Source: an uncultured Aureispira sp.
GTDB lineage: Bacteria > Bacteroidota > Bacteroidia > Chitinophagales > Saprospiraceae
Length of the DNA stretch: 64,000 bases
Reading direction: 5' to 3'
NCBI GenBank assembly: GCA_964526715.1
Contig: CAZGMB010000024.1
Location: 6,324-70,323 of the forward strand
Every line of letters starts with the position of its first letter. The first letter of the stretch is position 1. Positions 19,744 to 42,060 of this stretch are shown piece by piece. Position numbers and translations under genes: made by a program. The notes beneath the pieces were generated by a model, which worked only from the letters and a program-made list of their open reading frames with translations, was not told the origin of the DNA and made no database searches.

Positions 19744-22700
19744 TTACTCAACTATGATCATTTTCTTAGTCGCAGTAAAGTCTCCACTTTCAAGAGTGTA
19801 ATAAAGTACACCACTAACACCTAATTGCTCTTTGGTGAATACTTCATTGTTCATACCTTTTACAGCATCAATGTTTCTAACAACTACAAGTTTACCAGTC
19901 AAGTCATAAACACTTAGTGTAGCTGTAGCTGCTTGTGGCATACTGAAGCTTACTGTGGTTTGACCTCTGAATGGGTTTGGTTCGTTTTGGAACAATTCGA
20001 TTACTGAAATCGGTGCAGTACGTACGTTAAGTTTTACTCCTGCTACTTTCAGGTCGCTTGAGTAAGACTCTGCTTTAGTTACATTTGAATTCAATGTCAT
20101 CATTTCACTTACACTGGTTGCTTTGTCTGCTTTAACAGATATAGTGAAAAGTACTTCATTACTACTCAAATCTACATTCTCAACAGCTGCATAACTCATG
20201 GTTACATTGCCATTTTCAAGAATTCCTATATTAGCATTGTTGATATCTAAAGATCCACTGTTTACACCTACAAGCTTAGCATCTTTAAGGTTCATTGTAA
20301 ACTGGAATCCTGCCAACTCATCCATATTAGATGCTGTAAATGGTATTTCTACGGTTTGTCCAGCTTCTATATTGGTTTCATCAACATTAAAGATAATTCC
20401 TGTATTTGATCTTGGCTCTGTAAGCGCATTTACCACATCAGTAGTAGCACTAGAGTTAACATCTCCAATTTTTACAGCTACTAAATCCTGACCTGTTTTG
20501 GTCTCATTCAAACCTTGATATTCAAAAGCATCAGTGTAAGGGAATGGATTCTTAGCATCTAAAGTTTGTCCTTTAACAGGGAATCTCCAGCTTGCATTTC
20601 TGAATTCATCATTTACACCCAAGATTACTTTACGTAATTCTGTAAGGTCACTTGCTGTTACTCTTCCGTCATTGTTTGCATCAGATGCAATCACTTTGTA
20701 GGTATCATTAAAGACATCTAATCCTAAAATGTGTCTCTGAATCAATACAAGGTCAAGCGTTGTAACACCGTTAAGGTAATCACCACCTTTAGCTGCAGAT
20801 ACTTCATAATCCATATCTGAAACTACTTCCATTACATAATTACCAGCTGCATCAGGTTGAACTGTTTTAGGGAACTCAGGTAAATTAGTTTCAAATGTTA
20901 CGTTTACATTTTTAACTGCATTACCAGTTGAAGTCAATACTGTACCAGAAACGATAGGTTTGTTAGTATCACAACCTCTGATATTAAGTAAAGTTGAGCA
21001 GAAGTCTGTATTCCAAGCTTCATCCCATACACTTACTTCAACAGTAAAGTCACCACATGTTGTCCAAACTTTTCCAGCGCTTCTTGCTGATGGTAACCAC
21101 TTATAAGCTCTACCTTGAGCATATTCTGCTGCTGTTGCATTTACACTTCCGTTTGCACCTGCTTTGTAGAAGTGCTCGTCATTGATTCTAGAATATATTG
21201 GAGCCACTTTATCAAATGTAAAGTATAGTTTAGACTGAGGTGTACAGTTATCAAATGCACCTTTGTCGAAATCTTTAGCCCACAATTCAACCATCTTAGG
21301 ATTAGTCTGCATTACAGCTGTGTTGATGCTTACACAGTAAGGCGTAGGTGCTTTTTTGTCCACTACCATTACTGTACTTTCACATTGTGCTACATTACCA
21401 CATCCGTCAGTTACTTTCCACAATACTTTGTGGCTAATGTTCTCTGCGTCTAAGATAAACGCTGTCGCACCTGTTCCTACTGGTATTTTCACAGTCTCAC
21501 CACTTGCTTTTGTAGGTCTGATGTACGTTACATACACTAGATCTGCCAATGGTGCTCCTGGATGTTGTTGCTGTAATTGTGCCCAAACTGGGTTTGGTGC
21601 TCCTGTAGCCAACAATCTTGTTTGAGCTACCCAAATACCATTCCATGATTTGTTCACAAAGCTTGATGCTAATCTGTCTACTGTACCATTGGCCCAGCCG
21701 TCAAAGAACATCTGCCACTTAATCCAGCTTTCGTCAGCACATACTAACGCGTCTGTTGCTGATGCTTCTAGTGCTACCTGAGCCTCACATCCTCCGTTAG
21801 GATTAAGTGCGCTTGGGTTTGCTGCAAACATCTGATCTTGACATGTCAATACTGGTTCGATTTCGTCTTTGTAAGTATAGAAGTGAACAAATGGTCCTCT
21901 ATCTTCACCAGTACACCAGTTTTTATAGTTGTACTCTACTCTCCACTTCTTACAAGCTCCATCTTCGAATAAGAAAGTATCAATTTTGATATTCTCACCG
22001 ACGATATCACACTGACCGTAATTTACTATTGGTTTCTTGATAACAGGATTGTTAGCATCTCTAGCATCTGCTAAGTCAAAGCTACACTTATTCCACTCAG
22101 TCGTTGTATTATTTTGTGGGAACGTCACTGTAAATGGTGCCGTAATCGTCGTAACTGTAATGAATTGAACACATGTAACTACTGTATTACCTTTAGTTAC
22201 TTTGAATGTTCTTCTTAGTGTTCCACTCTTACAAACATCATTGAATTGTCCAACCCACTGGTCTCTGTATGTAATGTCTATGTTAGAACAAAGATCATAT
22301 GCTTTAGGTAATCCTGTCATGGTAAGGCTAGAACTAACTGGCGTGTCAGCATCTAAACTTAAGTTCAACTCCATATCACATGTTACTGTAACATCAGCAG
22401 GACAAACCAAAACTGGAGGAAGCTTATTCTCTACTCTTACAGTCACCCAAGTGGTATTGTAATTATCTCTCATTCCATTAATGATAAGATTATCACCGTA
22501 CACACCATTCATGTTACCATCATCCCATACTCTCAATTCCACATCGTGTAATCCAAACTCAGCTCCTGCAGGGATATCCTCACAACAGAACTTAACATAT
22601 TCACCACCATCTGTATCAATGATAATATTATTATCTCTAGTATCATTAGGGTGTGCCCATACATTGTTTGGAACGTTGTCCACAGGTGAGTGATTGTATG

Positions 22701-25700
22701 TGCTATTGTTATTATGATTGTTTGCTCCTATGTTTCCACATGAACCACCACTCAATCTTCTAACTTCAAGTTTCACATCTGTACAGTGGTCATATGAACC
22801 ATTATCAGCTGCGTCTGCATAAAGTTTAGCAAAACCGTCACCTTCACCACCGGTAAGACTTAAAACTATGTTTTGTAAGCCTATCGCTACTGGTGGACTA
22901 AAGTCACCTACAGTTACGTAGTAATAACATCTAGAAATATTACCACACTCATCCATGATAGTATACTCTACTAAATGTCTTCCTTTTTCAAGACCTTCCA
23001 CTCTAACTTTAATATCGTGTTCGTCGTGTCCAAGGAAACCACCTGTTACTATGGTTCTTCCTGGTCCAAATACTTTTGCAGTAAATGAAGCAACAGAAGA
23101 ACAACCATCAACCATTACAGCTGGTACAGGTAAGTCACTATGTGCAACACATCCCCAAGGATCTACACCAATAGTGATATCGTCAGGACATTCGATAATC
23201 TTAGGTCCTTTAGTATCGTTAACTTTGATAACCTGAACATGTACTCTTGGATTTGTAGAAGATAGTGGTAAACACATATTTCTAACTTTCCAAGTTCTCA
23301 ATATTTCATAACTACCTGGACAAATGTCAAAGATTTCGTCAGAAACATTTACACTCACCATACATAGGTTACCTGTTTTATTAACCGGTGTACCATTTAA
23401 TGATGGGAAGCCTGTATTGGAAGCATTGGTAAGACTTGGCGTTTGTTTAACGTCAGTACATTCTAATGCTTTGTCATTAGTAAAGTCTGCCGGCCAAACA
23501 ATGTTATCAAGATTTAAACCTTCAATAGTTATGATTTGGTCACAGCTTACTGTCTCACCATTACCATATGTTGAAGTCCAAGTTCTTGTTATGATTGCTC
23601 TCGGTGTAGCACACTGACCTCTATCATCAAACCAATCTTTGTAAGTGATTACTGCACCTGGCTTACAAGTTCTTAAGAAAGCTTCACCAGTTTTCAATGC
23701 GCCAGGTACTTTCGTTCCATCTGCCAAAGTGATGATAAATCTTTCATTTACATCTGTATTACAAGTTACTGTAACATTCGCAGGACAATTGATTTCAGGA
23801 ACCAATTTCTCCTCAATTGTCACTGTACCCCAACAACTGTTGCCTGTACCATTACAATCTACGATGCTCACTTTGAAAGTCTGATCTTTGTCGGAGATGT
23901 CAAAGAAGTTTGCATGAGGGATACCACTTAAAGTAGTAATCTCAATACAATATCTGTCAAAACATCTGTAATCATTACCTTCTAACAACATATCAGGATT
24001 AATTCTAGCTTCACAATTGTTGTCTAGAGATAAGTTGATATGGTCATTACAAGTAATCGTGTTACTTGGGATGTTTTCTTGTACCACTACAGTAAATGAA
24101 CATGTTGCAGTGTTACCTGCGATATCAGTTGCTGTTGCTGTAATTACGGTAGTACCAATCGGCAAATTAAGATTTGCAGGACTGTAAGTTACTACTGCAC
24201 TACAATTGTCTGTGGCAGGTACAGCACCAGGCCATTGGAAGGTACATTGACCTGATCCTAGTCTGAATGTCTGGTTACCCGGACAAATAATAGATGGTCT
24301 AGTAACGTCCCTTACAGTTACCGTTGCAAAACAAGCTGCTTCATTTCCACAATCATCAATTACTTTAACCAATACTTGATTTGGACCTAAGTCTGCACAA
24401 GTAAAGTTCAATTTTGACAATTGGAAAGTAAGGTCTGCTGCTGCACTACATGCATCAACTGCACCAGCTATTCCACCTTCGATCACATCACCCGCAGTGA
24501 TAGATACTTTTCCATCTGCATCAAGATCTACATTAATATTTTTACATGTAAACACAGGTGGTCTAGTGTCTCTAATTGTAATTCTTTGAACACCACTACT
24601 TCTATTTCCACAAGGGTCAGTTGCTGTCCAAGTTCTAGTAATGACACCTGTAAATCCACAAGTTCCTGGAGCAAAAGTCTCAGTAAATTCTATACAAATG
24701 AACTGAGAAGGTGCACAGTTGTCAACAGCGGCTGCTACTCCAAACTCTGCAAATGTTGCAGTTGGTGCAAAACTTCCTGTTGCAGGATTACAAGTAAATG
24801 ATTTAACTACATATGGTCCTGTACATTCAACAGTTACGTTCAATGGAACCGTAATTTCAGGAGCTTTAGAGTCTCTTACAGTAACTACTTGATTCCAAAT
24901 TTGTGCGTTATTGGATGCATCTCTTACAGTCCAAATGTTAGTCAATGTGTAATTGTAATGAGCACACAATGCTTGGTTAGGACTCTTAGTAGAGTTTTGT
25001 ACAAAAGCAATGGTCGGTGCAGCAGTACAGTTATCTTCTACATCATTTGGATTTAATACCAATGGTGCAGGTACATTATCACATTCTACAGTGATATTTT
25101 GTGGTTTACCCACCAATATCTCTGGTTGTTGTGAATCTAAGACTAAGATAGTAAATGTACAAGTCGCTGTATTACCATCATTGTCAGTAGCAGTATATCT
25201 GATGGTGTAAGGTCCTCCTACAGGTATTACATCTCCAGGTACAAATTGATTTGTTGGAGCGGCAACCACTGTAAGTGGAACATCACAGTTATCCACTGCA
25301 TATGGTATATCCCAATTTACTTTTGCACTACAACGATCTACGTCATTATTCACCATGATCATTGAAGGACAATTAGTAAAGAATGGCATTGCTCTGTCTA
25401 CTACAGTAATGTTCAATGAACAACTACCTTCATTACCAGCAGCATCTCTTACATAATATCTCAATACACTTAAACCTTCTTCAAAATCATAAGCTACATT
25501 TCTATTTCCGCCTGCAGCAATAAGCTGTGTAAGTGTAAATGGTCCTGCTACAGTTCCATCAGGGTTAGTGATGCTGTATGTGTAAACCGTAACTCCACAA
25601 TTATCCGCAGGTATAGGGTGTGTCCAAGACATCTGGCTTTCGCATCTAAAGATTTCCGTAACTAATGGATTGTTAGGAATAGATGCACAACTTACAGTTG

Positions 25701-28700
25701 GCACTTGTCTGTCTTCAACAGTCACTCTGATTGAACATGTACTTGTATTACCAGCTACATCTGTTGCAGTCCATATTACTGTAGTTGTACCCACAGGGAA
25801 TACAGCACCCGCAAGTGTAGCTGTGTTGTTAAAGTTATTTCTAAGTGTAACGGCTCCTGTACAGTTATCAGCTGCAGTTGCATTTAATGCTGTTGCAGGA
25901 ACTGTATATGAACATGCGTTATTGTCAGCTGAGAATACAAATGGACTACCCGCAGGGCAAGTAATAGTAGGTACTTGTCTGTCTACCACCACGATGTTAA
26001 ATGAACATGTGCCTATCAAAGTACCATTTGCTTCAGTAATTCTGTATGTTACTGTACTTGTACCCAAATTGAATACTGAACCCGCTGCGCTATTGTTACC
26101 GGAAGCTGATGTAGCACCTGTAATTGTGTATGTCACAGTGTAAGGACAGTTGTCAAAATTGAATCTTGGAGCCACTGCATCAGCGGTAGAAGTCCAAGTA
26201 CAAGTGTTATTGTCTGTTTGGAATGTTTGCGTTACAGATGGACAGTAAATCTCAGGGTTCTGAGTATCTACAACCGTCACTGTAAATGTACATACCGCAG
26301 TATTGTTATTAGCATCAGTTGCTAAGTATCTGATCACATAAGTTCCTATTGGCCAAGTACCACCTTGAGCAGGACCTGCATCAGTTCTTTGAACATTAGT
26401 ATATCCACAGTTATCAGAAGCAATTGGATTTGCCCAAGTTACTGTAGATGAACATAAATCTGGAGAGTTGCTTGCTGTAAAGTTGGATGGGCATTGTACA
26501 AATACCGGAACGGTATTGTCCGTAACCACCACATCAAAGAAACAAGTATTAATATTACCGTTAACGTCTCTCACGTTATATCTCACTCTTGTAGTACCTA
26601 CAGGGAAGTTATAAGTTGTAGCTAATGAGCCACCACTCAATAATGTTCCTGTTAGGTTGAATGGTCCAAAAATATCACCATTCGGTAACTCCAATCTGTA
26701 AGTATATAGACTTATTGTACAATTATCTGTAGGTGTAGGATGATTCCAAGAATGTGGCGCCGCACAATCTGCATCATCAGCACCTGTATTAAGCGCAACA
26801 TTAGTAGGACAAGCAATCGTTGGTACGACATTGTCTCTTACTTCAAAGTTAACTGTACATAGACTTGTGTTACCTGAACCATCCGTTGCAATAAAGTCAA
26901 TCGTGTAGAAACCAGGTCCATAATTACCTGTAGCGTCTGCTCCAGCATTAAAGAAAGGATCATTATGATTGATGGAAGCTACTGAACAATTGTCAGTCGC
27001 TGTTGCCACTAAAGGAATATTCACTACACATGCATTTGCAGGTACAAAGTAAACTGCCTGAACAGATGGACAAGTAATTACTGGAGCAGTAACGTCTCTT
27101 ACGACCACGGTTGCTGTACATGTAGATCTGTTACCCGCTGCATCAGTCACGGTATAGGTTACAAAAGAAGTACCTAAGTTAAATGTTTGAGTAGTAGGTA
27201 CACTGTTTTGACCTGTAGCAGGGCTATTTGCGGTAGTTACACCAGTAATAGCATAGGTTACTGTAAGGCCTGCAGTCATACAATTATCACTAAACACAGC
27301 TGCGTAAGGAGCAGGTAAAACGCCTACACAAGTAGCATTTGCATTTAATGTGATATCTTGAGGACAAGAAACTACTGGAGCATCATCGTCAGTTACGGTC
27401 ACGTCTACTGCACAAGTACTGGTATTTCCACCAAGGTCTGTAGCTATGAAAGTAACTCTAGTTGTTCCTGATATACCATTAGTACCTGGATAGAACAAAC
27501 CTGAAGTAAATCCTGAAACAGCTGTAGCTGCACTAGTAGCCGCAGGATTTGGCAATTGTGATGGAGCTGCTGCACCATTTCCAAAGAAATGAGAAATAGC
27601 AACATCTGTACAATTGTCACTCACTGTAGGTTGTAATGGCACGAATGCTGTACATCCCGCAGAAGGATCTGTACCCACAGTTACATTAGCTGGACAAGTT
27701 ATTACCGGGTCTCTGTCGTCTACAACTGTAATCACGAATGAACAAGTTGCAGTGTTTCCACTCATATCTGTTACTAAATAACTTTCAGTATGTGTACCTG
27801 CTCCATAATTTTGAACAGCTGCACCTTTACCGTTAGTTAATTGGGTAATAAACATAGGACAGTTGTCAGAAGCCACTGGAGCTGTATAAGCAATATTTAC
27901 AGAACAGTCATTAGCCGTAGCTGGTTGAGTGATCACAAAACCTCCTACAGGTGCTGATGGTGTCACCGTAAATCCTGCATTAGTAATATTAATTGTAATA
28001 TTTTCTGGACAACCTGTAAACTGTGGTAATACATTATCAACAACGGTTACCGTGAAGGTACATACTGAGATGTTTCCACTGGCATCAGCTGAAGAATAGG
28101 TAACTACTGATGTACCTTTTGCAAAAACATATGCATTTACTGCACCTGTTCCGTTAGCTACGGTTTGATCAGGGTTTAGTATAGAATATGTCAATACCGG
28201 TGGTACAGTACAATTATCTGTATTGGTTACCGGAGCTAAGCTTCCACTTGTCCATGTACATCCTGTATTAGGACTCACGTTCATAGTGATGTTAGCAGGG
28301 CAAACTAATGTAGGGGCAATTGCATCTACAACAGTCACATTTGCAATACATGTAGATGCATTACCATTTACATCAGAAACGAGAAGTACTACGTCATTCT
28401 GACCTAAATCAGCACATGTAAATTGACATGTACCATTAGGTGTAGTAAACGAAAACATACTATTGATTGTAACTGCAGCGCCGAGTATATTATCTACTGT
28501 ATTCATAATAAAACAGAATTGCTGACCAGCTGTTAACGTAACTGCTGTGGTTCCTGTTTGATTATTTAACCCTGAATTATTAGTCAATTGACTTGTTACA
28601 CCATTAACACTATATAAGAAAGGGTCATAGAATGGACCGTCAACATCCATTGTTTGATAATTCCATGAAAAACTTAATGTTCCGTTAACTGGTGCATTTA

Positions 28701-31700
28701 TGCAATAAGTAGTGTTTACATTACCGCCAGCACCAGTATTACTTCCAGTAATTTGAATATTACTTGGTGCACCAGCCGTATTGACGCTTCCATTACCACC
28801 ATTTGCATTGAAAGTCCAATTTGCAGGAGCAAAACTTCCAGAGAAACCTGTGGTTGTAGGACATACATTAACATTTGCAATACCACAATTGTCACTGCTA
28901 CCACCATTAACATCTGCTGCTACGATACTCGCTGTACCGGCTGCATTTAAGAAGATAGTGATGTCTTTGCATTGTGCAATAGGCTCTTCGAAATCCTGAA
29001 CAGTTGCTGTGTAAGTACAAGATACTGTTGGCGTCAAAGGAGTAAATACCCCAGCCACCAAAGTACCCGCGATGGCATGCACTGTATTCACACCAACATT
29101 AAATGCAGTGGCGTTTACAGTACTTAGTGTCACTGGTGATGCCATAGATGCGATTGTTGTCGCACCTGTCACCCAATATCTGATTGTGAACTCATCAGCA
29201 CAATCTGCATTGATTTCTGCAGGAATCAAATTCATAAATGTGTTGCAAGAGCCTGCATCAGTTGCTGCTGTAAAGTCAGCAGGACAAGTGATGATTGGTC
29301 CTGAATAAGTCACTGTAATCTCAGTAATAGTGGTACACATTGGGCCATTAGCACCATTAGTACCGTTATTAGGGTCAGTAACAGTGAGTCTGTAAACATA
29401 ATCACCTGGAGTAGCTTCAGTAACTGTAACTGTTCCAGTTGTTCCTGCGATAGGACCAGCAGTAGGACTCACTCTTTCCCAACTGTATGTATATCCAACA
29501 CCACTACCCGCTACAACAGTGCTAACTAATTGAACAGGCTGAGTGATACAAGAAGGATTTTCTATAGCAGTAAGGGTTACGATTGGTCTATTGACAACTC
29601 TTACCTCGATCGTTCCTACATAGAAACAGTCGTCACCAGCAAGACCATCAACATTATGTCCGATTCTAACATATATAGCTGCGTCAGAAGAAATATAGTC
29701 AAATGGTCCTGTAGCAGATAATAAACCTGTCGCGCCACCATTGACTGCGTTATTATAACTATTATAGTACCCAAGTACAGTTATGCTTTGTGGAGCAGGT
29801 ACTGTAGGCAATGCATACGTTATACCTGTGAAAGTACCTGAATTTCCACCTGGAGTGGTTGGACAAGTTTCTAACAAAACATCAGTAAGTGCAGGTGCAT
29901 CTATGATACTTAATGTAAATGTTGTTGCCAATTCAGCACATCCACCACATCTTTGCCATATTTGGTAAGTACCTGGAATAAATACAGGTTGGAAACTAAC
30001 CGGTGCACCATTTCCTGCAATAGTTTGCACTAAAGCATTGCCAATAGGAGCAGCTAAAGGTGAGGTAGAAAGGTTGTAATACAACTCATATGTACAAGCA
30101 GCATCAGTATTTGATGTTGTAGATAAGGTCCAACCGTTATTATTAGCACACTGAACAGCTGTGTTTGGAGATGTTTGCCATCCACCTGTTGGTGCAAAGT
30201 TCGGTTGTACTGTGATACTAAATTTAACTTCAGCACCTTGACAAGTTACACCATTTAATGTAATCTGTGGCGTTACACCGATAGTAACTACGTTAGGGAA
30301 ATTGTTTCCATTTTCACCCATCCACATTAACTCAGGTGCATTATTTGGTAAGCTATTTAAGGTACCCGGGGCTACCACAAGCGGATCGCTACTGGTAACT
30401 AAATAGGAAACTGTAGCTATCCCTACACCTGTGGCAGGATCTACCAAACATGCAGGTACCATTTGCTCTAAGTATTGTAAATCTATTTTTCCATTGTCAC
30501 CCAAACATACAGTTATGTTGTTTGGTGTGATCGCCATAGGAGGCGCAGGAAGGACGAAAGCATCCTGACTACCTACACACGCTGCATTAAACGAAGCCGG
30601 AACAGCATCGATAATAGCAGATGTTTGAGCATTGAGAGGCATTTGAATATTTGATGGATAAATTGGAGGCGTCGGACTTACTACAGGTATACCATTCCCA
30701 GCGGGGATTGAACCACAATTTGCAGTTCTAACAGGAACTACTTCCACTCTGTAACATCCCACTGCAGGGTTTATCCATGCAGGAACTATTTGCCAGCCAC
30801 CGACAACAGTATTAGTCACAGTATTAACCAATCTGTATCTCCATGCATATCCAGCCGGTGCTGTACTTCCAGCCGCAGCAGTTAAGCTACCCCCAGCACA
30901 AACCGGTGCAACGGTAAGAGTAGGCGGAGCAGGGAATGTAATGAAATCTCTGTTTAATGATCTACAAGTAATATCTGCGACTGTGCCTGCGGCAGCACCG
31001 TCAGGTGATGCACCACATGCTGTCGTTGCTCTCACATTTACTCTGATATTGTGGCAACCAGCAACAAAATTAATGGCTTGAAGGCCTGCAAGATTTACAG
31101 GACCAAACGCAGTTCCATTATTCGAACCCGTGTAGACCAACTCCATACCTGTAGGTATAGAAACTGGTGCAGAAAGGGTAACTGTAGATACATTAGTTGT
31201 AGCACCACAATTAGCTGCCATGCTTACAGTAGGAGTCACAGTGCTTAAATCAGGCCAAACAATAAATGTTCTAGTAGCCTCACAACTAGCATCAGGACTC
31301 ACGGTTCCTGCTGCGGTAGCGCCACAAGCTGATGTCAAGGCATATCTAACAGATAATGAATGACAACCCGGAGCTATATTTGTAGGTAGTGTGGTACTGT
31401 AAGCACCACCATCTAAACTATATCTAAGTTCAAAACCAGGTACTACAGCAGGTACCACATCCCAGTTTACTGAGATATTGGTATTTCCGCATGTGCTACC
31501 TTTGGTAATGGAAGTAATATTGCTGGTAACATCTGGGAAGATGGTCATTTGTACAGCGTTACTAGCCTCACAAGCAGGTAGTGCCGGAGTACCTATAGGG
31601 AATGAACCACATGCCGCTGCTAATACGTATCTAGCTCTAACTGAATAACATCCAGCTGCTGTTGTGCTTGGATTGGTTGCCCAAGTCACACCATTGTCTA

Positions 31701-34700
31701 TACTATATTGAACAGAGTATCCTGGAACAGCTGGTACAGTAGGTAATGTAAACATAGTAGCACATGTATTTGCCGTAGCTGTAATAGTTGGCGGTGGTGG
31801 CGTATTGTGTAAGTAAATTGTTGAACTGACTCCACATGCGGGATCAATTGACTCTCCGCTGGTACCTGCTAAAGTACTTCCACAATCAGCAGCCAACACA
31901 TATCTTGCTGCAACAGGTCTACAACCAACTTCAAACCAATTAGAAGGGAAAAACAATCCCGGAGCTAACCATACACCATCCCAGCTTAATTGTATATTGA
32001 ATCCAGTTGGAGGAGGAGCATAGAAAATTGTAAGACCTGCACCAGGGCACCTTTGTAAATCAGTTAAGGTTAAAGAATTAGCCCAGTTTATAATTGCACT
32101 AGTTGGGAATATAATAACATTTACAGTATTACTTTCTGCACAGGCACCTGGCCCTGCCGTTAATGGTGCTACAGTTCCACAAGCCGCAGTATTGACATAT
32201 CTAGCTTGTACTGAATAACATCCTGCTGTAGTGGGAATTACAGGTGCATCTGTCCAATCAATGATAGTCCCTGTAGATGTGTTTACTACTCTGTATTGAG
32301 TAGTGAACCCAACAAATGAAGGCACTGTCGGCAATGTAAACGCTGCATTACAGGTATTAGCTGGCGCAGTAATTACCGGCGCTGCTGGATAAATCAATGC
32401 ATTTACAGGAGCACTAGCTGCACAAGCTGCATCTGCACTACTTGCACCCGCAGGGTTAGTACCACAAGCTGCCGCAAGTACGTATCTTGCTCTTACTGTG
32501 TAGCATCCTGCTAAAGTAGTGCTCGGAGCCGCCGACCAACTGCCTGAATTATTGAGTTCATATTCTACATTAAAACCAGTCACTGGTGTAACAGTAGGTA
32601 GCGTAAACATAGCATTACAACTACTTGCTGGTTGAGCTAATGTTGGCGCGGTAGGGAAAATGACTACGCTTACCGTGTTACTAGTTGCACATGCACCAGG
32701 GCCTGCTGTATTAGCCAGTGTGGCTCCACAGTCTGCTCCAAGTACATACCTTGCTGCAACTGTATAACATCCAGAAGAAGTAGGGACAGTAGGGGCAGCC
32801 GCAAATGCTCCACCATCTATAGAATACTGCACAGAAAAACCTGGAACAGCAGGAACCGCAGGTAATGTGAATGCACTATTACAAGTGTTTATTGGCGCAG
32901 TAATCGTTGGTGCCTGTGGGAAAATAACCACATTAACAGTGTTACTGATACCACAAACACTTGGCCCCGTAGCGCCCGCAGGTGTCGTTCCACACGCTGA
33001 TGCAAGAACATACTGTGCCCTTATATTGTAACATCCTGGAGTCGTAGGTAAAACAGGTGTACTGGTAAAAGCACCACCATTTATACTCCACTGAACATTA
33101 AATCCAGGAGTAGGGGTAACAGTTGGTAAAGTGAATGCTGCCGCACATGTGTTGGTTGGTGCAGTTAATATTGGAGCTTCAGGGAATATAACTACATTTT
33201 CTGCGTTGCTTGGAGCAGTACATGAAGAAGTAACTCCATCAGAAAATGAACCAGCAGGAACAATATTAAATGGCAATGAACCACAAGCTGCAGCTGTTAC
33301 GTATCTAGCCCTAATTGAGTGACAGCCTGCCGCTAAATCATTAAGCGTCACACCTACTGTTGCGTATGCATCAGAAAATGCAGCACCGTAATGACCACCC
33401 CAATATCCATTGTCAGCGCCACCATGTTCTATATAAATGGATCTTACACCAGGACCATACCCGCTGAAAGTATGCGATATCTGTAAAGGTGTTAAACCGA
33501 TAAACATTGGAGCTCCTGGAGTACCTTGACCGAAAGAAGCGATAACGTTATTTGAAGCATCTCTTAATTCGTATCTTACATAGTATGGATCTGGACCAGC
33601 TGCGCCACATAGTGCGTTTAAAAATATTGATCTAACTACCTCACCCACATTAATATCTGGAGCTGAATCCAAATATCCAGCAGTGTAACCTGCAGCTAAT
33701 AAATCAATAGTTTGGCTTTTTCTAAGGCTTGCAGTGTTTTCAGGACAGCTGCCATAAGATGTTATAAATAATGGATTAGACGCTGCCCAACCGTTTCCAG
33801 AACTTGAAATAATATTCCAACCTGAAGTACTTCCTGTTTGAGCACTATTATTACTTACTAAATTGTTAAAAGGAGTTGTGCTCCATGGTCCTCCATCTAC
33901 ACTGTATTCCACGCTAAAACCTGGAACCGCTGGTACACTTGGTAATAAAAAGTTTGAACTACAAGTATTGGAAGGAGCAACTATTGTTGGAGGAGTAGGA
34001 TAAACTACAAAATTGTGTACTTTTCTGCAAGCCGAAGGTGAATCACCATCTGCCGTAGAGTTGTCACAATTAGCCATTTGGCGTATCATTAGGTTATGAC
34101 ATCCTGGAGCAATACCTGTAGGTAAAGCTGTACTGTATGCACCACCATTAAGGCTATATTCATAAGTTACATTAGTTGGTGCCGGTGGTAATCCTGTAAC
34201 GGAAGATACCGTACCATTGCTACCACTAGAACAAGTGGTGTTCACTGTAATATTGGCAGTACTTAAATCATCAAATAAGACAAAGTTGGTTATAGCAGAT
34301 GCAGGCGTAGGATTACCTGTACCACAACCAAAAAATCCTGCAGAATTGGTATTTAATCTGTAGGATATAGTGTGACATCCTCTGCTTAATGTAGCTGGAA
34401 TCGTAGAGCTGTAAGCACCACCATCTATGCTATACTCATATGAGAAACATGAGTACAAAGGATTTGGAATAACAGAGATAGTAGCAGCGCAAGTTAGATT
34501 GCCCACTATACTGGCTGCAGCTAGTGCAGGAGGTCCGTTAGTACCAAAGTATATACTATATGTAGTAGTAGTACTTGGTATCATCATACCTGGAGTATAG
34601 GTGTTGCCACCACAAGTAACATTAGTAGTAGCAAAAACAGCTACCGTAATACAGTGTGGCCCTGCTGGGACACCGCTAGGTAAGCTATTGGCAAATGCCG

Positions 34701-34965
34701 GACTACCATCTAAGGAATAACGATACTCATAGCCTGCTCCTGGGGTCACAGGTGCTATAGTAGCATTTACAACAGCATGATTGCCGTTGGTACAAACATC
34801 CGCAGGACTGAAAGTCATTGATGATATCGTCGGTGCAGTAGGGCACGCCTGACCAATCAATGTTTCGGAACCTAACGTGAAGAAGCAAAGAAACAAAATC
34901 AACATCCAGCCACTAAAAGTGCTCGATGGACTTTGCTTTTGCAATAAAACGTTTAAGTTTTTCAT
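19744..34965 (-). CDS. Giant (5,073-aa) T9SS-secreted multi-domain surface adhesin. Contains a signal peptide, ~97-aa Cys repeats, a nested FBA-like lectin domain, a HYR-like array, CarboxypepD_reg-like, dockerin-like and cohesin-like modules, and a T9SS C-terminal sorting domain.
   Basis: A single uninterrupted 15.2-kb ORF. N-terminal hydrophobic signal GWMLILFLCFFTLGS. Domain evidence is given in the sub-features below. Confidence 0.95.
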   Translation of the reverse strand: MKNLNVLLQKQSPSSTFSGWMLILFLCFFTLGSETLIGQACPTAPTISSMTFSPADVCTNGNHAVVNATIAPVTPGAGYEYRYSLDGSPAFANSLPSGVPAGPHCITVAVFATTNVTCGGNTYTPGMMIPSTTTTYSIYFGTNGPPALAAASIVGNLTCAATISVIPNPLYSCFSYEYSIDGGAYSSTIPATLSRGCHTISYRLNTNSAGFFGCGTGNPTPASAITNFVLFDDLSTANITVNTTCSSGSNGTVSSVTGLPPAPTNVTYEYSLNGGAYSTALPTGIAPGCHNLMIRQMANCDNSTADGDSPSACRKVHNFVVYPTPPTIVAPSNTCSSNFLLPSVPAVPGFSVEYSVDGGPWSTTPFNNLVSNNSAQTGSTSGWNIISSSGNGWAASNPLFITSYGSCPENTASLRKSQTIDLLAAGYTAGYLDSAPDINVGEVVRSIFLNALCGAAGPDPYYVRYELRDASNNVIASFGQGTPGAPMFIGLTPLQISHTFSGYGPGVRSIYIEHGGADNGYWGGHYGAAFSDAYATVGVTLNDLAAGCHSIRARYVTAAACGSLPFNIVPAGSFSDGVTSSCTAPSNAENVVIFPEAPILTAPTNTCAAAFTLPTVTPTPGFNVQWSINGGAFTSTPVLPTTPGCYNIRAQYVLASACGTTPAGATGPSVCGISNTVNVVIFPQAPTITAPINTCNSAFTLPAVPAVPGFSVQYSIDGGAFAAAPTVPTSSGCYTVAARYVLGADCGATLANTAGPGACATSNTVSVVIFPTAPTLAQPASSCNAMFTLPTVTPVTGFNVEYELNNSGSWSAAPSTTLAGCYTVRARYVLAAACGTNPAGASSADAACAASAPVNALIYPAAPVITAPANTCNAAFTLPTVPSFVGFTTQYRVVNTSTGTIIDWTDAPVIPTTAGCYSVQARYVNTAACGTVAPLTAGPGACAESNTVNVIIFPTSAIINWANSLTLTDLQRCPGAGLTIFYAPPPTGFNIQLSWDGVWLAPGLFFPSNWFEVGCRPVAARYVLAADCGSTLAGTSGESIDPACGVSSTIYLHNTPPPPTITATANTCATMFTLPTVPAVPGYSVQYSIDNGVTWATNPSTTAAGCYSVRARYVLAAACGSFPIGTPALPACEASNAVQMTIFPDVTSNITSITKGSTCGNTNISVNWDVVPAVVPGFELRYSLDGGAYSTTLPTNIAPGCHSLSVRYALTSACGATAAGTVSPDASCEATRTFIVWPDLSTVTPTVSMAANCGATTNVSTVTLSAPVSIPTGMELVYTGSNNGTAFGPVNLAGLQAINFVAGCHNIRVNVRATTACGASPDGAAAGTVADITCRSLNRDFITFPAPPTLTVAPVCAGGSLTAAAGSTAPAGYAWRYRLVNTVTNTVVGGWQIVPAWINPAVGCYRVEVVPVRTANCGSIPAGNGIPVVSPTPPIYPSNIQMPLNAQTSAIIDAVPASFNAACVGSQDAFVLPAPPMAITPNNITVCLGDNGKIDLQYLEQMVPACLVDPATGVGIATVSYLVTSSDPLVVAPGTLNSLPNNAPELMWMGENGNNFPNVVTIGVTPQITLNGVTCQGAEVKFSITVQPNFAPTGGWQTSPNTAVQCANNNGWTLSTTSNTDAACTYELYYNLSTSPLAAPIGNALVQTIAGNGAPVSFQPVFIPGTYQIWQRCGGCAELATTFTLSIIDAPALTDVLLETCPTTPGGNSGTFTGITYALPTVPAPQSITVLGYYNSYNNAVNGGATGLLSATGPFDYISSDAAIYVRIGHNVDGLAGDDCFYVGTIEVRVVNRPIVTLTAIENPSCITQPVQLVSTVVAGSGVGYTYSWERVSPTAGPIAGTTGTVTVTEATPGDYVYRLTVTDPNNGTNGANGPMCTTITEITVTYSGPIITCPADFTAATDAGSCNTFMNLIPAEINADCADEFTIRYWVTGATTIASMASPVTLSTVNATAFNVGVNTVHAIAGTLVAGVFTPLTPTVSCTYTATVQDFEEPIAQCKDITIFLNAAGTASIVAADVNGGSSDNCGIANVNVCPTTTGFSGSFAPANWTFNANGGNGSVNTAGAPSNIQITGSNTGAGGNVNTTYCINAPVNGTLSFSWNYQTMDVDGPFYDPFLYSVNGVTSQLTNNSGLNNQTGTTAVTLTAGQQFCFIMNTVDNILGAAVTINSMFSFTTPNGTCQFTCADLGQNDVVLLVSDVNGNASTCIANVTVVDAIAPTLVCPANITMNVSPNTGCTWTSGSLAPVTNTDNCTVPPVLTYSILNPDQTVANGTGAVNAYVFAKGTSVVTYSSADASGNISVCTFTVTVVDNVLPQFTGCPENITINITNAGFTVTPSAPVGGFVITQPATANDCSVNIAYTAPVASDNCPMFITQLTNGKGAAVQNYGAGTHTESYLVTDMSGNTATCSFVITVVDDRDPVITCPANVTVGTDPSAGCTAFVPLQPTVSDNCTDVAISHFFGNGAAAPSQLPNPAATSAATAVSGFTSGLFYPGTNGISGTTRVTFIATDLGGNTSTCAVDVTVTDDDAPVVSCPQDITLNANATCVGVLPAPYAAVFSDNCMTAGLTVTYAITGVTTANSPATGQNSVPTTQTFNLGTSFVTYTVTDAAGNRSTCTATVVVRDVTAPVITCPSVQAVYFVPANACVVNIPLVATATDNCSVASINHNDPFFNAGADATGNYGPGFYTIDFIATDGSGNTSLCTVNFEVRDNVVPTIACPTNVALNTGADDADCAAPHSWNHPTPTDNCTISLYTYRLELPNGDIFGPFNLTGTLLSGGSLATTYNFPVGTTRVRYNVRDVNGNINTCFFDVVVTDNTVPVFVQCPSNFTASNSPDLCSSTVTWANPIASDNCGYTNVQRTDAGPAQGGTWPIGTYVIRYLATDANNNTAVCTFTVTVVDTQNPEIYCPSVTQTFQTDNNTCTWTSTADAVAPRFNFDNCPYTVTYTITGATSASGNNSAAGSVFNLGTSTVTYRITEANGTLIGTCSFNIVVVDRQVPTITCPAGSPFVFSADNNACSYTVPATALNATAADNCTGAVTLRNNFNNTATLAGAVFPVGTTTVIWTATDVAGNTSTCSIRVTVEDRQVPTVSCASIPNNPLVTEIFRCESQMSWTHPIPADNCGVTVYTYSITNPDGTVAGPFTLTQLIAAGGNRNVAYDFEEGLSVLRYYVRDAAGNEGSCSLNITVVDRAMPFFTNCPSMIMVNNDVDRCSAKVNWDIPYAVDNCDVPLTVVAAPTNQFVPGDVIPVGGPYTIRYTATDNDGNTATCTFTILVLDSQQPEILVGKPQNITVECDNVPAPLVLNPNDVEDNCTAAPTIAFVQNSTKSPNQALCAHYNYTLTNIWTVRDASNNAQIWNQVVTVRDSKAPEITVPLNVTVECTGPYVVKSFTCNPATGSFAPTATFAEFGVAAAVDNCAPSQFICIEFTETFAPGTCGFTGVITRTWTATDPCGNRSSGVQRITIRDTRPPVFTCKNINVDLDADGKVSITAGDVIEGGIAGAVDACSAAADLTFQLSKLNFTCADLGPNQVLVKVIDDCGNEAACFATVTVRDVTRPSIICPGNQTFRLGSGQCTFQWPGAVPATDNCSAVVTYSPANLNLPIGTTVITATATDIAGNTATCSFTVVVQENIPSNTITCNDHINLSLDNNCEARINPDMLLEGNDYRCFDRYCIEITTLSGIPHANFFDISDKDQTFKVSIVDCNGTGNSCWGTVTIEEKLVPEINCPANVTVTCNTDVNERFIITLADGTKVPGALKTGEAFLRTCKPGAVITYKDWFDDRGQCATPRAIITRTWTSTYGNGETVSCDQIITIEGLNLDNIVWPADFTNDKALECTDVKQTPSLTNASNTGFPSLNGTPVNKTGNLCMVSVNVSDEIFDICPGSYEILRTWKVRNMCLPLSSTNPRVHVQVIKVNDTKGPKIIECPDDITIGVDPWGCVAHSDLPVPAVMVDGCSSVASFTAKVFGPGRTIVTGGFLGHDEHDIKVRVEGLEKGRHLVEYTIMDECGNISRCYYYVTVGDFSPPVAIGLQNIVLSLTGGEGDGFAKLYADAADNGSYDHCTDVKLEVRRLSGGSCGNIGANNHNNNSTYNHSPVDNVPNNVWAHPNDTRDNNIIIDTDGGEYVKFCCEDIPAGAEFGLHDVELRVWDDGNMNGVYGDNLIINGMRDNYNTTWVTVRVENKLPPVLVCPADVTVTCDMELNLSLDADTPVSSSLTMTGLPKAYDLCSNIDITYRDQWVGQFNDVCKSGTLRRTFKVTKGNTVVTCVQFITVTTITAPFTVTFPQNNTTTEWNKCSFDLADARDANNPVIKKPIVNYGQCDIVGENIKIDTFLFEDGACKKWRVEYNYKNWCTGEDRGPFVHFYTYKDEIEPVLTCQDQMFAANPSALNPNGGCEAQVALEASATDALVCADESWIKWQMFFDGWANGTVDRLASSFVNKSWNGIWVAQTRLLATGAPNPVWAQLQQQHPGAPLADLVYVTYIRPTKASGETVKIPVGTGATAFILDAENISHKVLWKVTDGCGNVAQCESTVMVVDKKAPTPYCVSINTAVMQTNPKMVELWAKDFDKGAFDNCTPQSKLYFTFDKVAPIYSRINDEHFYKAGANGSVNATAAEYAQGRAYKWLPSARSAGKVWTTCGDFTVEVSVWDEAWNTDFCSTLLNIRGCDTNKPIVSGTVLTSTGNAVKNVNVTFETNLPEFPKTVQPDAAGNYVMEVVSDMDYEVSAAKGGDYLNGVTTLDLVLIQRHILGLDVFNDTYKVIASDANNDGRVTASDLTELRKVILGVNDEFRNASWRFPVKGQTLDAKNPFPYTDAFEYQGLNETKTGQDLVAVKIGDVNSSATTDVVNALTEPRSNTGIIFNVDETNIEAGQTVEIPFTASNMDELAGFQFTMNLKDAKLVGVNSGSLDINNANIGILENGNVTMSYAAVENVDLSSNEVLFTISVKADKATSVSEMMTLNSNVTKAESYSSDLKVAGVKLNVRTAPISVIELFQNEPNPFRGQTTVSFSMPQAATATLSVYDLTGKLVVVRNIDAVKGMNNEVFTKEQLGVSGVLYYTLESGDFTATKKMIIVE
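19747..19998 (-). other. T9SS type-A C-terminal sorting domain (Por_Secre_tail)
   Basis: The last ~84 aa read LFQNEPNPFRGQTTVSFSMPQAATATLSVYDLTGKLV...YYTLESGDFTATKKMIIVE. This matches the N-P-F ... L-x-[VI]-[YF]-D-x-x-G-[KR] ... K-[ML]-[IV] pattern of the CTD. Confidence 0.85.
20020..20406 (-). other. Cohesin-like module
   Basis: FNVDETNIEAGQTVEIPFTASNMDELAGFQFTMNLKDAKLVGVNSGSL resembles the cohesin beta-sandwich signature. Assigned from memory of the family; not searched. Confidence 0.5.
20608..20778 (-). other. Dockerin-like duplicated Ca-binding segment
   Basis: LNGVTTLDLVLIQRHILGL is followed by SDANNDGRVTASDLTELRKVILG. The second copy has the D-x-N-x-D-G-x(5)-D loop. Confidence 0.65.
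20788..20952 (-). other. CarboxypepD_reg-like beta-sandwich
   Basis: VSGTVLTSTGNAVKNVNVTFE...DAAGNYVMEV is the typical pattern. Confidence 0.6.
24070..29298 (-). repeat. Array of about 20 HYR-like (hyalin-repeat-type Ig) domains of ~80-85 aa each
   Basis: A recurring unit of the form P-x-[IF]-x-CP-x-[ND]-[IV]-T ... D-N-C ... Y-x-[AV]-T-D-x-[AS]-G-N-x-x-x-C-x-F-x-[IV]-x-V-x-D. An example is CPANITMNVSPNTGCTW...DNC...YSSADASGNISVCTFTVTVVD. Confidence 0.75.
28447..28845 (-). other. Unidentified ~135-aa module nested inside an Ig-like domain (residues about 2041-2173)
   Basis: The host domain reads ...AADVNGGSSDNCGIANV [insert] CQFTCADLGQNDVVLLVSDVNGNASTC. The insert reads FSGSFAPANWTFNANGGNGSV...GTLSFSWNYQTMDVDGPFYDPFLYSVNGV...QQFCFIMNTVDNILGAAVTINSMFSF. 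Confidence 0.5.
30691..34848 (-). repeat. About 14 tandem ~90-100-aa N-terminal Cys-containing repeats
   Basis: Unit consensus is NTC-x-[AS]-x-FTLPTVP-x-VPGF-x-VQYSIDGG-x-[FW]...GCY-x-V-x-ARYVLAAACG...C-x-x-SN-x-V-x-V-[IV]-IFP-x-AP. Confidence 0.8.
33352..33870 (-). other. FBA-like (F-box-associated / Fbs1-FBXO2-type glycan-binding) domain nested in one N-terminal repeat (residues about 366-538)
   Basis: ISHTFSGYGPGVRSIYIEHGGADNGYWGGHYGAAFSDAYATV aligns with the human FBXO2 C-terminus ISHTFTDYGPGVRFVRFEHGGQDSVYWKGWFGARVTNSSVWV (recalled). Upstream matches are KSQTIDLLAAGY against KAQVIDLQAEGY, and GWNIISSSGNGW against GWCDVEHGGDGW. Confidence 0.7.
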
Positions 34966-39298: not shown

Positions 39299-40090
39299 AT
39301 GCTTCAAAAAGATTTTAAACATATCGGACACCATTCCGAATCATATCAACTGTCTGTCGTAATAATGGCAGACAGTTTTTTTTATAGTATATTTGATGAC
39401 CAAAATTCACTGATTACTCATCATTCTTATAAAAATATTCATTTTTCTGATGAGAGTATACAAGTCATCTTAGAAGATCAAGCCTTAAATCATCAGTATA
39501 ACCAAATCAATGTAGTTTCTTTAGGTGGAAATGCACACCAATTGGCGCTACCTGATGATGACTTTATCCATTCGTTGCCTACTATGGCTTGGAAAGAACT
39601 ATATAAAGAGCAATTGCCAGGACAATATATTTATAATTATTTTGGCATTACGCCATCACAATTAGACTTGTTAAATCAACTATTTAAAAATTACAACTAC
39701 CCAATACATGATTTTTCATTTCTTTTGACTGCTTATTATATTGGTATTGATTCACCTTGTGTACACGTACATTTTGAAGAACATCTGATCACTATTTTTA
39801 TTCAACATGAGGGGAAAGTACAGTTTTACAATACCTTTACATTTACCACAGAAAAAGATGTCTTATACTTTGTATTGGCGGCAATGAATTATGCACACCT
39901 AGATCCCAAAAGCAATAGTGTACAGGTTACAGGTTGGATTGATCCCAAATCAACCATTTTTACTTTGCTAAAATCCTATATATCTCAAATAACAATGCTT
40001 GAAGACGCAGATTTTTTAATTAATACAAAGGAAAACTATCAGGCTGCAAACTATTTTATTCACTTTATAAATAGATTATGCGCATTATAG
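39299..40090 (+). CDS. Hypothetical protein, possibly DUF3822 family
   Basis: A YQLSVVIMADSFFYSIFD-type N-terminus, and the position directly upstream of and overlapping rsmD, match my recollection of DUF3822 genes in Bacteroidota. Confidence 0.45.
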   Translation: MLQKDFKHIGHHSESYQLSVVIMADSFFYSIFDDQNSLITHHSYKNIHFSDESIQVILEDQALNHQYNQINVVSLGGNAHQLALPDDDFIHSLPTMAWKELYKEQLPGQYIYNYFGITPSQLDLLNQLFKNYNYPIHDFSFLLTAYYIGIDSPCVHVHFEEHLITIFIQHEGKVQFYNTFTFTTEKDVLYFVLAAMNYAHLDPKSNSVQVTGWIDPKSTIFTLLKSYISQITMLEDADFLINTKENYQAANYFIHFINRLCAL

Positions 40091-40614
40091 GTGGTAGATT
40101 TAAAGGGAGAAAATTTATACCACCTGCCAAAAACTGGCCTACTCGACCCACTACTGATTTTTCAAAAGAAGGACTGTTCAATATTCTAAATAACAGAATC
40201 GATTTTGAATCTACGGTGATGTTGGATTTATTTGGTGGCACAGGAAATCATAGTTATGAATTTATATCGAGAGGATGTACTGATGTGACCTACGTGGATA
40301 AATTTCCTGGTTGTATTGCCTTTGTTACCAAAACTGCACAGGAATTAGATATACAAGATCAGATAAAAATTGTGAAGTCTGATGTCTTTAAGTTTTTACA
40401 GCATAATGTAAGACAATACGATTATATATTTGCAGGTCCTCCCTACCCTTTGCCCAATCTAAATGCCATACCTGATGAAATATTCAAATACAACACATTA
40501 GCAGATGATGGCCTGTTTGTTTTGGAACACAACCCAAACCATAATTTTAAAAACCATGTTAGATACCTAGAAGAACGGAACTATGGTACTACAATTTTTA
40601 GTTTTTTTAGGTAG
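40078..40614 (+). CDS. rsmD: 16S rRNA (guanine966-N2)-methyltransferase
   Basis: MRIIGGRFKGRKF, TRPTTD, DLFGGTG and FAGPPY motifs. 13-nt overlap with the upstream gene. Confidence 0.85.
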   Translation: MRIIGGRFKGRKFIPPAKNWPTRPTTDFSKEGLFNILNNRIDFESTVMLDLFGGTGNHSYEFISRGCTDVTYVDKFPGCIAFVTKTAQELDIQDQIKIVKSDVFKFLQHNVRQYDYIFAGPPYPLPNLNAIPDEIFKYNTLADDGLFVLEHNPNHNFKNHVRYLEERNYGTTIFSFFR

Positions 40615-40618
40615 ATAT

Positions 40619-41362: not shown

Positions 41363-41451
41363 AATATGCTTATTGAAAATTTGACCGCTAAGATAACAGC
41401 AATTTTCTATTTGATGGCAATTTATAGACCATAAGCATAAATCTATCGCCC

Positions 41452-41990: not shown

Positions 41991-42060
41991 TTATTCAAAT
42001 TATTTTACAGCTTTACAAATCACACCGCTTTACGATGGTAGCCTTAGATACTCCACTTGA

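Follow-up and report, generated by a model that had tools for sequence, protein, structure and literature searches.

Almost everything known about the FBA domain concerns its part as glycan sensor in the cytosolic ubiquitin ligases of ER-associated degradation and lysophagy. In the sugar-binding domain (SBD) of Fbs1 (FBXO2), F177, Y279 and W280 make up an aromatic triad that forms the GlcNAc2 pocket and stacks on GlcNAc-GlcNAc (PMC4603797), and this pocket sits on top of the sandwich, away from the F-box/Skp1 side (PMC6389600, PMC4603797). The triad alone is insufficient for lectin activity, since FBXO44 (FBG3) possesses it and still fails to bind sugar, owing to a different loop network in which the beta5-beta6 loop is pivotal (PMC4603797). 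NCCRP1 is an FBA protein that lacks an F-box (PMC3210139). Engineered Fbs1 has been used to capture N-glycopeptides (PMC5457524).

The window analyzed here is a stretch of 64,000 nucleotides from an uncultured Aureispira sp., in which a first-pass annotation had proposed that an FBA domain is nested inside a repeat of a giant T9SS adhesin. A search of Pfam PF04300 confirmed the domain at residues 368-537 (33355-33864, minus strand), with a match covering profile positions 9-175 of 175 (E=4.4e-20) that scored 72.6 bits, where the gathering cut-off is 32.4. A phmmer search of the PDB returned the FBXO2 SBD (1umi_A, E=2e-15) as well as FBXO6 and FBXO44, and the FBXO2 peptides that the annotation had quoted proved nearly exact when compared with the PDB alignment. 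The AF2 model had an overall pLDDT of 80.3, with values of 83-98 in the FBA part. Its ten best Foldseek matches were all SBDs of Fbs1, Fbs2 or FBG3 (E~1e-12, TMt 0.76, rmsd 3.0 Å), and the model reproduced the 10-stranded antiparallel beta-sandwich of the Fbs1 SBD, in agreement with the fold that had been proposed. The query keeps every position with a conservation of at least 80% in 211 FBA copies, for example W383, W393, Q418, D421, L422, Y503, R508 and W522. Residues ~366-540 are thus a complete FBA-family beta-sandwich. The Foldseek ranks after the top ten were occupied by bacterial CBM22, CBM4, CBM16 and CBM61 and by phage tailspike modules; the Fbs1 fold lies within the wider CBM/galactose-binding-like class. 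The resemblance to these CBMs (E 1e-5 to 1e-4) comes with only 9-15% identity and is a likeness at the level of the fold. The Fbs1 binding site lies at the loop apex, whereas many such CBMs use the concave sheet face.

Compared with the SBDs of Fbs1/FBXO2, Fbs2/FBXO6 and Fbs3/FBXO27, the query shares the Pfam family over its full length, the 10-stranded sandwich and the aromatic triad, but at 27-34% identity and with two extended, probably disulfide-linked loops and a glycine in place of Lys281. It also lacks the F-box, the linker and the ubiquitin-ligase context of these proteins, is predicted to be extracellular where they are cytosolic, and is nested in another domain where their FBA domain is C-terminal. 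FBXO44/FBG3 and NCCRP1 share the fold and triad with the query and are cytosolic vertebrate proteins.

The nesting could be read directly from the alignment of the host repeat with its neighbors. The N-terminal half of the host repeat (residues ~320-365, 33871-34008, minus strand), which ends in NTCSSNFLLPSVPAVPGFSVEYSVDGGPWSTTP, and the C-terminal half (residues ~541-590, 33196-33345, minus strand), which begins with LNDLAAGCHSIRARYVTAAACG, both align with six sister repeats at 41-58% identity, and the only interruption is a single gap of ~175 columns. Uninterrupted sister repeats of the same ~88-aa four-Cys family occupy residues 591-1235 (31261-33195, minus strand). The whole insert extends over about residues 366-540, and residues 366-538 of the open reading frame, which the annotation had given as the interruption, correspond exactly to positions 33352-33870 of the window. 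All of the peptides it quoted were found in the minus-strand translation. Because the closest FBA relatives are nested in HYR domains, HYR was tested as the identity of the host repeat; a diverged HYR was rejected, as the rejoined halves had no Pfam HYR match and an hhalign probability of 0.1%. Pfam returned only a weak CHB_HEX_C motif, at 13.7 bits on the rejoined halves. An AF2 model of one sister-type repeat unit (pLDDT 84.7) had no significant PDB match that would assign a fold class (best E=0.17).

The protein that carries the insert is 5,073 aa long (19744-34965, minus strand), with a reading frame that is open throughout. Its domains are a putative signal peptide, judged by eye from a hydrophobic segment at the N-terminus, followed by Cys-rich ~88-aa repeats, PKD-like domains, many HYR domains, Dockerin_1, CarboxypepD_reg and a T9SS CTD. 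This last element, a type A C-terminal sorting domain at residues 4996-5071 (19753-19980, minus strand), scored 34.8 bits with TIGR04183 (cut-off 23) and 28.1 bits with PF18962 (cut-off 27), and it bears out the earlier assignment of the protein as T9SS surface cargo. The identical protein is present in NCBI on a contig of 73.8 kb, and one fragment in its 90% cluster bears the name 'T9SS type A sorting domain-containing protein [Saprospiraceae bacterium]'. The domain search detected no F-box or F-box-like domain in all 5,073 aa, as had been claimed, and a six-frame HMM search found a single FBA copy, with no second one, in the whole window.

In overall design the protein resembles the giant T9SS fibers GhpA, the Aureispira grappling hook, and SprB of Flavobacterium, with which it shares a length above 5,000 aa, a Sec signal, an N-terminal binding region, a long stem of disulfide-rich Ig-like repeats, a C-terminal T9SS sorting domain and a PorP-family gene nearby. 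The latter encodes a PorP/SprF-family T9SS outer-membrane protein (16355-17467, minus strand; PF11751, 127.6 bits) that, by analogy with ghpB beside ghpA, is a possible anchor of the adhesin. GhpA sets the example of a giant Saprospiria T9SS fiber with an adhesin module at its distal, N-terminal end, although that module is Antigen I/II-like and the one of the query is an FBA domain. Apart from the FBA domain, the giant adhesin showed no sequence homology to GhpA or to any other solved adhesin; one host-type repeat weakly resembles the GhpA structure (TM 0.50, E 0.56).

We sought the counterparts of the Fbs1 glycan contacts in the family alignment. Tyr404 (33754-33756, minus strand), in the beta3-beta4 loop, is the equivalent of the glycan-stacking Phe177, and Tyr521-Trp522 (33400-33405, minus strand), in the beta9-beta10 loop, are the equivalents of Tyr279-Trp280. 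The triad positions are aromatic in most of 236 FBA copies, the W522 position in 199 of them. The contact residues named in the first-pass annotation as a point to check are therefore retained as far as the triad is concerned (Y404/Y521/W522), but the loops that shape the pocket are remodeled and Lys281 is replaced by Gly523, directly after Trp522. The query consequently does not have the Fbs1-like loop network with its short beta5-beta6 loop and Lys281. Two clade-specific extensions account for the remodeling, one of 7 residues in the beta3-beta4 loop (SCPENTA, containing Cys407; 33730-33750, minus strand) and one of about 7-8 residues in the beta5-beta6 loop (LNALCGA, containing Cys453; 33601-33621, minus strand), the latter modeled at a low confidence of pLDDT ~65. 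The loop-2 Cys is present in 7/7 copies that have the loop-1 Cys insertion, and no copy has it alone. The same twin extensions and Cys pair are present in members of the query's clade, such as the FG-GAP/FBA-in-HYR protein of the cultured Christiangramia crocea YB25, the Flavobacteriaceae MAG protein L003, and P0010, P0021 and P0031. A family-wide disulfide between the two loop regions was ruled out, as Cys residues there showed no association across the family (Fisher p=0.08, odds ratio <1). For this reason our proposal that a Cys407-Cys453 disulfide joins both extended loops, which is probable from sequence co-occurrence, is limited to the 7 related sequences.

Taken together, we favor the reading, at a probability of about 0.6, that the nested FBA domain binds glycans from a position close to the distal tip of a giant T9SS adhesin, with a ligand that is probably not identical to that of Fbs1. 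The expectation of a different ligand follows from the sequence, because the beta3-beta4 and beta5-beta6 loops are extended and Lys281 has become glycine. In the mechanism we propose, the C-terminal sorting domain would fix the adhesin to the outer membrane, and therefore the N-terminal region, including the FBA domain, would be held at the far end of a long repeat fiber; this geometry is suggested by analogy with GhpA, to which the adhesin has no sequence homology. The FBA termini are expected to leave the host-repeat loop side by side, so that the loop apex opposite the termini would face outward. That apex, with Y404, Y521 and W522, would be a lectin-like or CBM-like carbohydrate-binding site, through which the fiber could attach to targets that bear glycans, for example prey, the surface of an alga or host, or floc polysaccharide. 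Saprospiraceae occur in large numbers in activated sludge and on algae. The logic would be that of CBMs on enzymes and on surface glycan-binding proteins, where a glycan module is likewise carried by a secreted multidomain protein. If glycan binding is true, the domain would give a clue to the attachment targets of giant Saprospiraceae T9SS adhesins.

The alternative that survives best, although we regard it as rather unlikely, is that the FBA domain does not act as a lectin, like that of FBXO44/FBG3 and possibly NCCRP1, and instead makes protein contacts or forms a structural knob on the fiber. Such contacts might consist of lateral association between adhesin protomers, or of binding to a protein target, for example flagella or pili. 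In favor of this reading, FBXO44 shares the fold and triad without binding sugar, and in the query the pocket-shaping loops are remodeled and Lys281 is lost; giant Saprospiria T9SS fibers can moreover bind proteins, flagella among them. Against this, the glycan-stacking aromatics are strongly kept over hundreds of divergent prokaryotic copies, the next-best structural neighbors in Foldseek are all carbohydrate-binding modules, and secreted proteins pair the FBA domain with the lectin-like domains Laminin_G_3 and Lectin_C.

An apparent extreme rarity of the domain was an artifact of a word-index search with the domain alone, which gave 3 matches and missed the query's own cluster; an exhaustive search returned 641 clusters. 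The best 150 of these scored 87-422 bits, compared with ~55 bits for vertebrate FBXO2, and were mostly non-metazoan multidomain secreted proteins with a T9SS tail, HYR, cadherin or PEP-CTERM. Among the 68 top FBA matches, an F-box was present in only 2, while Por_Secre_tail was found in 17 and HYR in 7; the other partner domains were cadherin, Big_9, DUF11, SprB, RTX, Laminin_G_3 and Lectin_C. FBA domains are encoded in 45 prokaryotic species genomes, from Bacteroidota, Verrucomicrobiota, Endozoicomonas, Myxococcota and two archaeal MAGs, and the best match among GTDB species representatives was 52% identical. The family is therefore widespread in secreted bacterial proteins and is not a eukaryotic speciality.

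Within it, the query belongs to a prokaryotic, F-box-less, extracellular branch, and specifically to a small Bacteroidota clade (L003, P0010, P0021, P0031 and P0015 in the FBA tree) whose members are typically inserted in Ig-like domains, usually HYR. In L003, P0010, P0021 and P0031, the sequences flanking the FBA domain rejoin to a full HYR domain (31.7-47.5 bits, cut-off 21.7). These prokaryotic relatives are often T9SS cargo and are uncharacterized; their host is HYR, in contrast to the ~88-aa four-Cys repeat of the query. The nested FBA-in-Ig-like architecture thus recurs in other genomes, including that of one cultured isolate.

These results divide the novelty that had been claimed for the insertion. 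FBA domains in T9SS adhesins and their nesting in HYR are recurrent, and Pfam already tags prokaryotic FBA proteins automatically. On the other side, none of 49 homologues of this particular host repeat carries an FBA insert, and our literature searches found no paper on prokaryotic FBA domains. The recurrent nesting illustrates how domains become inserted into Ig-like repeats in nature and is not a categorically new system.

What the query and several hundred relatives add is that many bacteria and some archaea employ the FBA fold outside the cell, where adhesins and other secreted proteins carry it. If the prokaryotic domains bind glycans, they would supply new lectin specificities and be a starting point for tracing the origin of eukaryotic F-box lectins. 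A wider proposal, which we advance only tentatively, is that the prokaryotic F-box-less FBA domains may form an unrecognized extracellular glycan-binding family, exceeding the eukaryotic F-box lectins in size and diversity and possibly being their source. One Bacteroidota lineage would then have become an 'insertable' module in at least two unrelated Ig-like hosts, carrying a disulfide-braced, re-specified apex at the tips of giant T9SS fibers for prey, algal or host glycans.

The same data bear on where the domain came from. It had been described as 'eukaryote-type' and grafted into the adhesin, and a tree had been suggested as a check on horizontal transfer. Recent acquisition from an animal, protist or alga would fit the fact that the Pfam FBA family was built from F-box proteins of eukaryotes, that all the literature found is eukaryotic, and that some FBA-bearing bacteria (Endozoicomonas, Kistimonas) are animal symbionts. 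We consider it very improbable, however. The query's nearest relatives are Bacteroidota proteins with 44-58% identity, against 30-34% for animals, and at least five prokaryotic phyla possess the domain, always in typically bacterial architectures. In a neighbor-joining tree of 236 copies, the named metazoan F-box copies formed one clade of 23 leaves that did not contain the query. A foreign base composition was ruled out as well, since the GC3 of the insert (0.197) is similar to that of the rest of the gene (0.238). The eukaryotic framing is accordingly not supported, and the domain belongs to a large radiation among secreted and surface proteins of prokaryotes.

Finally, there is only a negligible chance that the insert arose as a chimera during assembly or is what remains of a pseudogene, outside the expressed protein: the source appears to be metagenome-assembled and repeat-rich giant genes misassemble easily, but the frame is open over 5,073 codons, the family-invariant residues and both host-repeat halves are intact, similar nested architectures exist in other genomes, and a 5,069-aa JGI protein from an independent assembly matches the query with 100% identity over the 275 aa that cover the two junctions.

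The largest open reading frame of the window (19744..34965, minus strand) encodes a giant protein of 5,073 amino acids whose C-terminal end carries the signal for sorting and anchoring, a type A sorting domain of the T9SS (TIGR04183, 34.8 bits; PF18962, 28.1 bits). Its further domains include numerous HYR copies, one PKD-like domain, Dockerin_1 and CarboxypepD_reg, and a domain scan of the whole 5,073-residue chain found no F-box. The first-pass annotation had described an FBA domain, the substrate-binding domain of the Fbs1 family, interrupting one repeat of a T9SS adhesin that lacks an F-box. That description was borne out on every point: each quoted peptide was found in the translation, and residues 366-538 correspond exactly to window positions 33352-33870. 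Over residues ~336-572, hmmscan matched Pfam FBA (PF04300) at profile positions 9-175 of 175 (E=4.4e-20, 72.6 bits, gathering cut-off 32.4 bits). A phmmer search against PDB sequences returned the substrate-binding domains of FBXO2, FBXO6 and FBXO44 only (best 1umi_A, E=2e-15), which stayed the sole relatives of solved structure when the whole giant protein was searched. Residues 318-592 were modelled with AlphaFold2 from an alignment of 41 sequences, giving a mean pLDDT of 80.3, with most of the FBA at 83-98 and the extended beta5-beta6 loop at ~65. The ten best Foldseek matches in the PDB were the substrate-binding domains of Fbs1, Fbs2 and FBG3 (E~1e-12; target-normalised TM of the top matches 0.76, rmsd 3.0 A). 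Next, six orders of magnitude behind, ranked bacterial modules of the CBM22, CBM4, CBM16 and CBM61 families, together with carbohydrate-active domains of phage tailspikes. Because PF04300 matches and the predicted fold is of the Fbs1 type, the FBA call holds, and the domain is a member of Pfam FBA by HMM, fold and core residues alike. The complete FBA fold sits inside a stalk repeat, at 366 residues from the N-terminal end of a predicted Sec/T9SS-exported protein.

The host repeats, ~88 residues long with four cysteines, occupy window positions 31261-34008 on the minus strand, with the consensus ...NTC..FTLP.V..V.GF.VQYS.DGG....P...T.PGCH.I.ARYVL..ACG... and relatives in cluster proteins P0213-P0261. 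Aligned with six neighbouring repeats, the query region showed a single gap of ~175 columns, and the two halves of the interrupted repeat were 41-58% identical to their uninterrupted sisters, confirming the nesting. Pfam offered no model for this repeat beyond a weak CHB_HEX_C motif. HYR was rejected as its identity: the rejoined repeat had no Pfam HYR match, and the profile-profile probability was 0.1%. A sister repeat was modelled confidently with AlphaFold2 (pLDDT 84.7); the model had no significant neighbour in the PDB and a weak Ig-like resemblance, to GhpA fragments among others. The 49 homologues of the repeat family, mostly from Saprospiraceae, Sphingobacteriales and Chitinophagaceae, all lack FBA, and 53 of 57 repeat units keep the usual 10-19-residue spacing at the insertion point. 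In the sequences compared, FBA insertion into this host is so far unique to the query protein.

The closest FBA relatives are five sequences, L003 (a Flavobacteriaceae MAG locus) and cluster proteins P0010, P0021, P0031 and P0015, and BLAST identities between the query and its clade relatives were 44-58%. The FBA is likewise nested in all of these but P0015. When it was excised from those four and the flanks rejoined, Pfam HYR was recovered at full length (profile 6-81 of 81, 31.7-47.5 bits, cut-off 21.7); by a motif census of 210 copies, 8 or more are HYR-nested. Since these relatives are HYR-nested and the query's host shows no relationship to HYR, one FBA lineage sits in loops of two host domains unrelated by sequence. 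P0021 has the same architecture as the protein at L004 (NZ_JAJSON010000018.1) of the cultured isolate Christiangramia crocea YB25, which carries eight FG-GAP repeats and an HYR-nested FBA of the query's clade; this strain is a practical organism for function tests.

Fbs1 grips the GlcNAc-GlcNAc core through Phe177 in the beta3-beta4 loop and Tyr279/Trp280 in the beta9-beta10 loop, at the top of the sandwich and opposite its Skp1-binding side (PMC4603797; PMC6389600). The query equivalents are Y404, Y521 and W522. These positions are aromatic in most copies, in the metazoan clade and the rest alike, with Trp in the W522 column in 199 of 236. The main rival reading, that the query FBA is a non-lectin member of the family, has its precedent in FBG3/FBXO44, which retains Tyr/Tyr/Trp at the triad without binding sugar, owing to a different hydrogen-bond network in its loops, the short beta5-beta6 loop being pivotal (PMC4603797; PMC6389600). 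In the query clade the beta5-beta6 loop is 8 to 12 residues longer, and a 7-residue extension follows Y404 immediately. Each extension brings one Cys, the inserted pair being all-or-none (7/7); across the FBA family, cysteines in these two loops showed no association. A predicted clade-specific disulfide probably braces the remodelled pocket. Lys281 of Fbs1, typical of the metazoan clade, is Gly in the query. Because the pocket is remodelled, the predicted ligand may differ from the N-glycan core. We regard a non-lectin FBA as rather improbable and predict glycan binding with modest confidence.

A lectin- or CBM-like attachment module is the most likely role; to the proposal as a whole we assign a probability of about 0.6, and its structural part we hold with near certainty. 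By what is established for the T9SS and by the precedent of GhpA, the N-terminal part of the protein would be the one far from the cell. GhpA, a T9SS substrate of 5,898 aa from Saprospiria, has its adhesin module at the distal, N-terminal end, together with an Ig-like stem rich in disulfides and a sorting domain at the C-terminus; a PorP homologue adjoins it (bioRxiv 10.1101/2024.01.29.577165). Judging from Fbs1 structures, the FBA termini would be on the far side from the binding loops, so that the apex of a loop-inserted FBA would face outward from the fibre axis. The domain would act in the manner of a CBM-type module on an adhesin; lacking an F-box and having a different loop network, the query falls outside the sugar-recognising F-box proteins. 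A PorP/SprF-family outer-membrane protein gene (16355-17467, minus strand; PF11751, 127.6 bits) lies 2.3 kb downstream of the gene for the 5,073-aa protein, recalling ghpB beside ghpA in Aureispira, and its product may anchor one of the giant proteins. A second giant frame (3-9032, minus strand; >3,010 aa, running off the window start), with eleven HYR_4C, Ig_7 (CHU_C-associated) and an SprB repeat, probably codes for a further T9SS fibre or adhesin in the neighbourhood.

The domain had also been labelled eukaryote-type. A word-index search (three matches, two of them amphibian FBXO2) gave a misleading impression of rarity and eukaryotic affinity, overturned by an exhaustive phmmer search of 1.84 billion cluster representatives. 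This found 641 clusters with E<=1e-3, of which 354 reached E<=1e-10; scores of the top 150 were 87-422 bits, against ~55 for vertebrate FBXO2, with lengths of 192-6,974 aa and one to eight FBA copies each. Pfam architectures of 68 of these 150 contained FBA in 68, Por_Secre_tail (T9SS) in 17, HYR in 7 and F-box in 2, alongside bacterial Ig, cadherin, DUF11, SprB, RTX, Laminin_G_3 and C-type lectin domains. A profile scan with a single peptide pattern located 45 FBA loci in GTDB species genomes: Flavobacteriaceae, Christiangramia, Draconibacterium, Mariniphaga, Saprospiraceae, Phaeodactylibacter, many Verrucomicrobiota, Endozoicomonas, Kistimonas, Polyangiaceae, Minicystis, Byssovorax and two archaeal MAGs. 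Representative prokaryotic architectures were all extracellular and free of F-box, and a single-domain form with a PEP-CTERM anchor occurred on clearly bacterial contigs. In a neighbour-joining tree of 236 copies, rough, biased towards the query and without a meaningful root, the named metazoan F-box copies formed one 23-leaf clade excluding the query. The label fits only in part, and a recent eukaryotic source for this copy is very unlikely.

Pfam already tags FBA automatically in T9SS proteins, whose names are 'hypothetical protein' or 'T9SS type A sorting domain-containing protein', so by the criterion set in the first-pass annotation part of the claimed novelty falls; the combination with this four-Cys host is unique. 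Also left standing for the query clade are the recurrent nested-domain habit and the remodelled pocket with its probable disulfide brace. The searchable literature yielded no description of the prokaryotic extracellular FBA radiation, which appears undescribed.

An assembly chimera is disfavoured, because the reading frame is intact and 275 residues across both junctions are 100% identical in a 5,069-aa JGI protein from an independent assembly. That protein belongs to the giant protein's 90%-identity cluster, in which a fragment is annotated 'T9SS type A sorting domain-containing protein'; the exact sequence is present in NCBI, and third-position GC is similar in insert (0.197) and gene (0.238).

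Several further observations were made. Among the marine-animal symbionts Endozoicomonas and Kistimonas, giant cadherin/Big_9/Laminin_G_3 proteins with FBA are strikingly common (L008, L010, L011, L016, L019, L021, L026, L033, L037, L042); a recent family-wide genomic review reports F-box enrichment in Kistimonas and leaves FBA unmentioned. The archaeal domains lie at L027 5380-5895 and L036 3511-4044; a Methanobacteriota MAG has its FBA within a 1,954-aa NosD/right-handed beta-helix protein, and a Methanophagaceae contig also bears one. Cluster proteins P0009, P0016 and P0022 (also P0007, P0008, P0011) combine a signal peptide with two or three tandem FBA, some ending in HDEL; these are probably ER-resident proteins of microbial eukaryotes that have FBA but no F-box, which gives the fold a third setting. 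In the giant protein, the Dockerin type I match (25.9 bits, cut-off 22.9; residues ~4672-4781, window ~20620-20950, minus strand), an unusual partner for a Bacteroidota adhesin, is preceded by a CarboxypepD_reg-like domain, with the sorting domain just downstream. GC skew spikes locally to +0.257 at window 40001-42000, amid surroundings of ~0.
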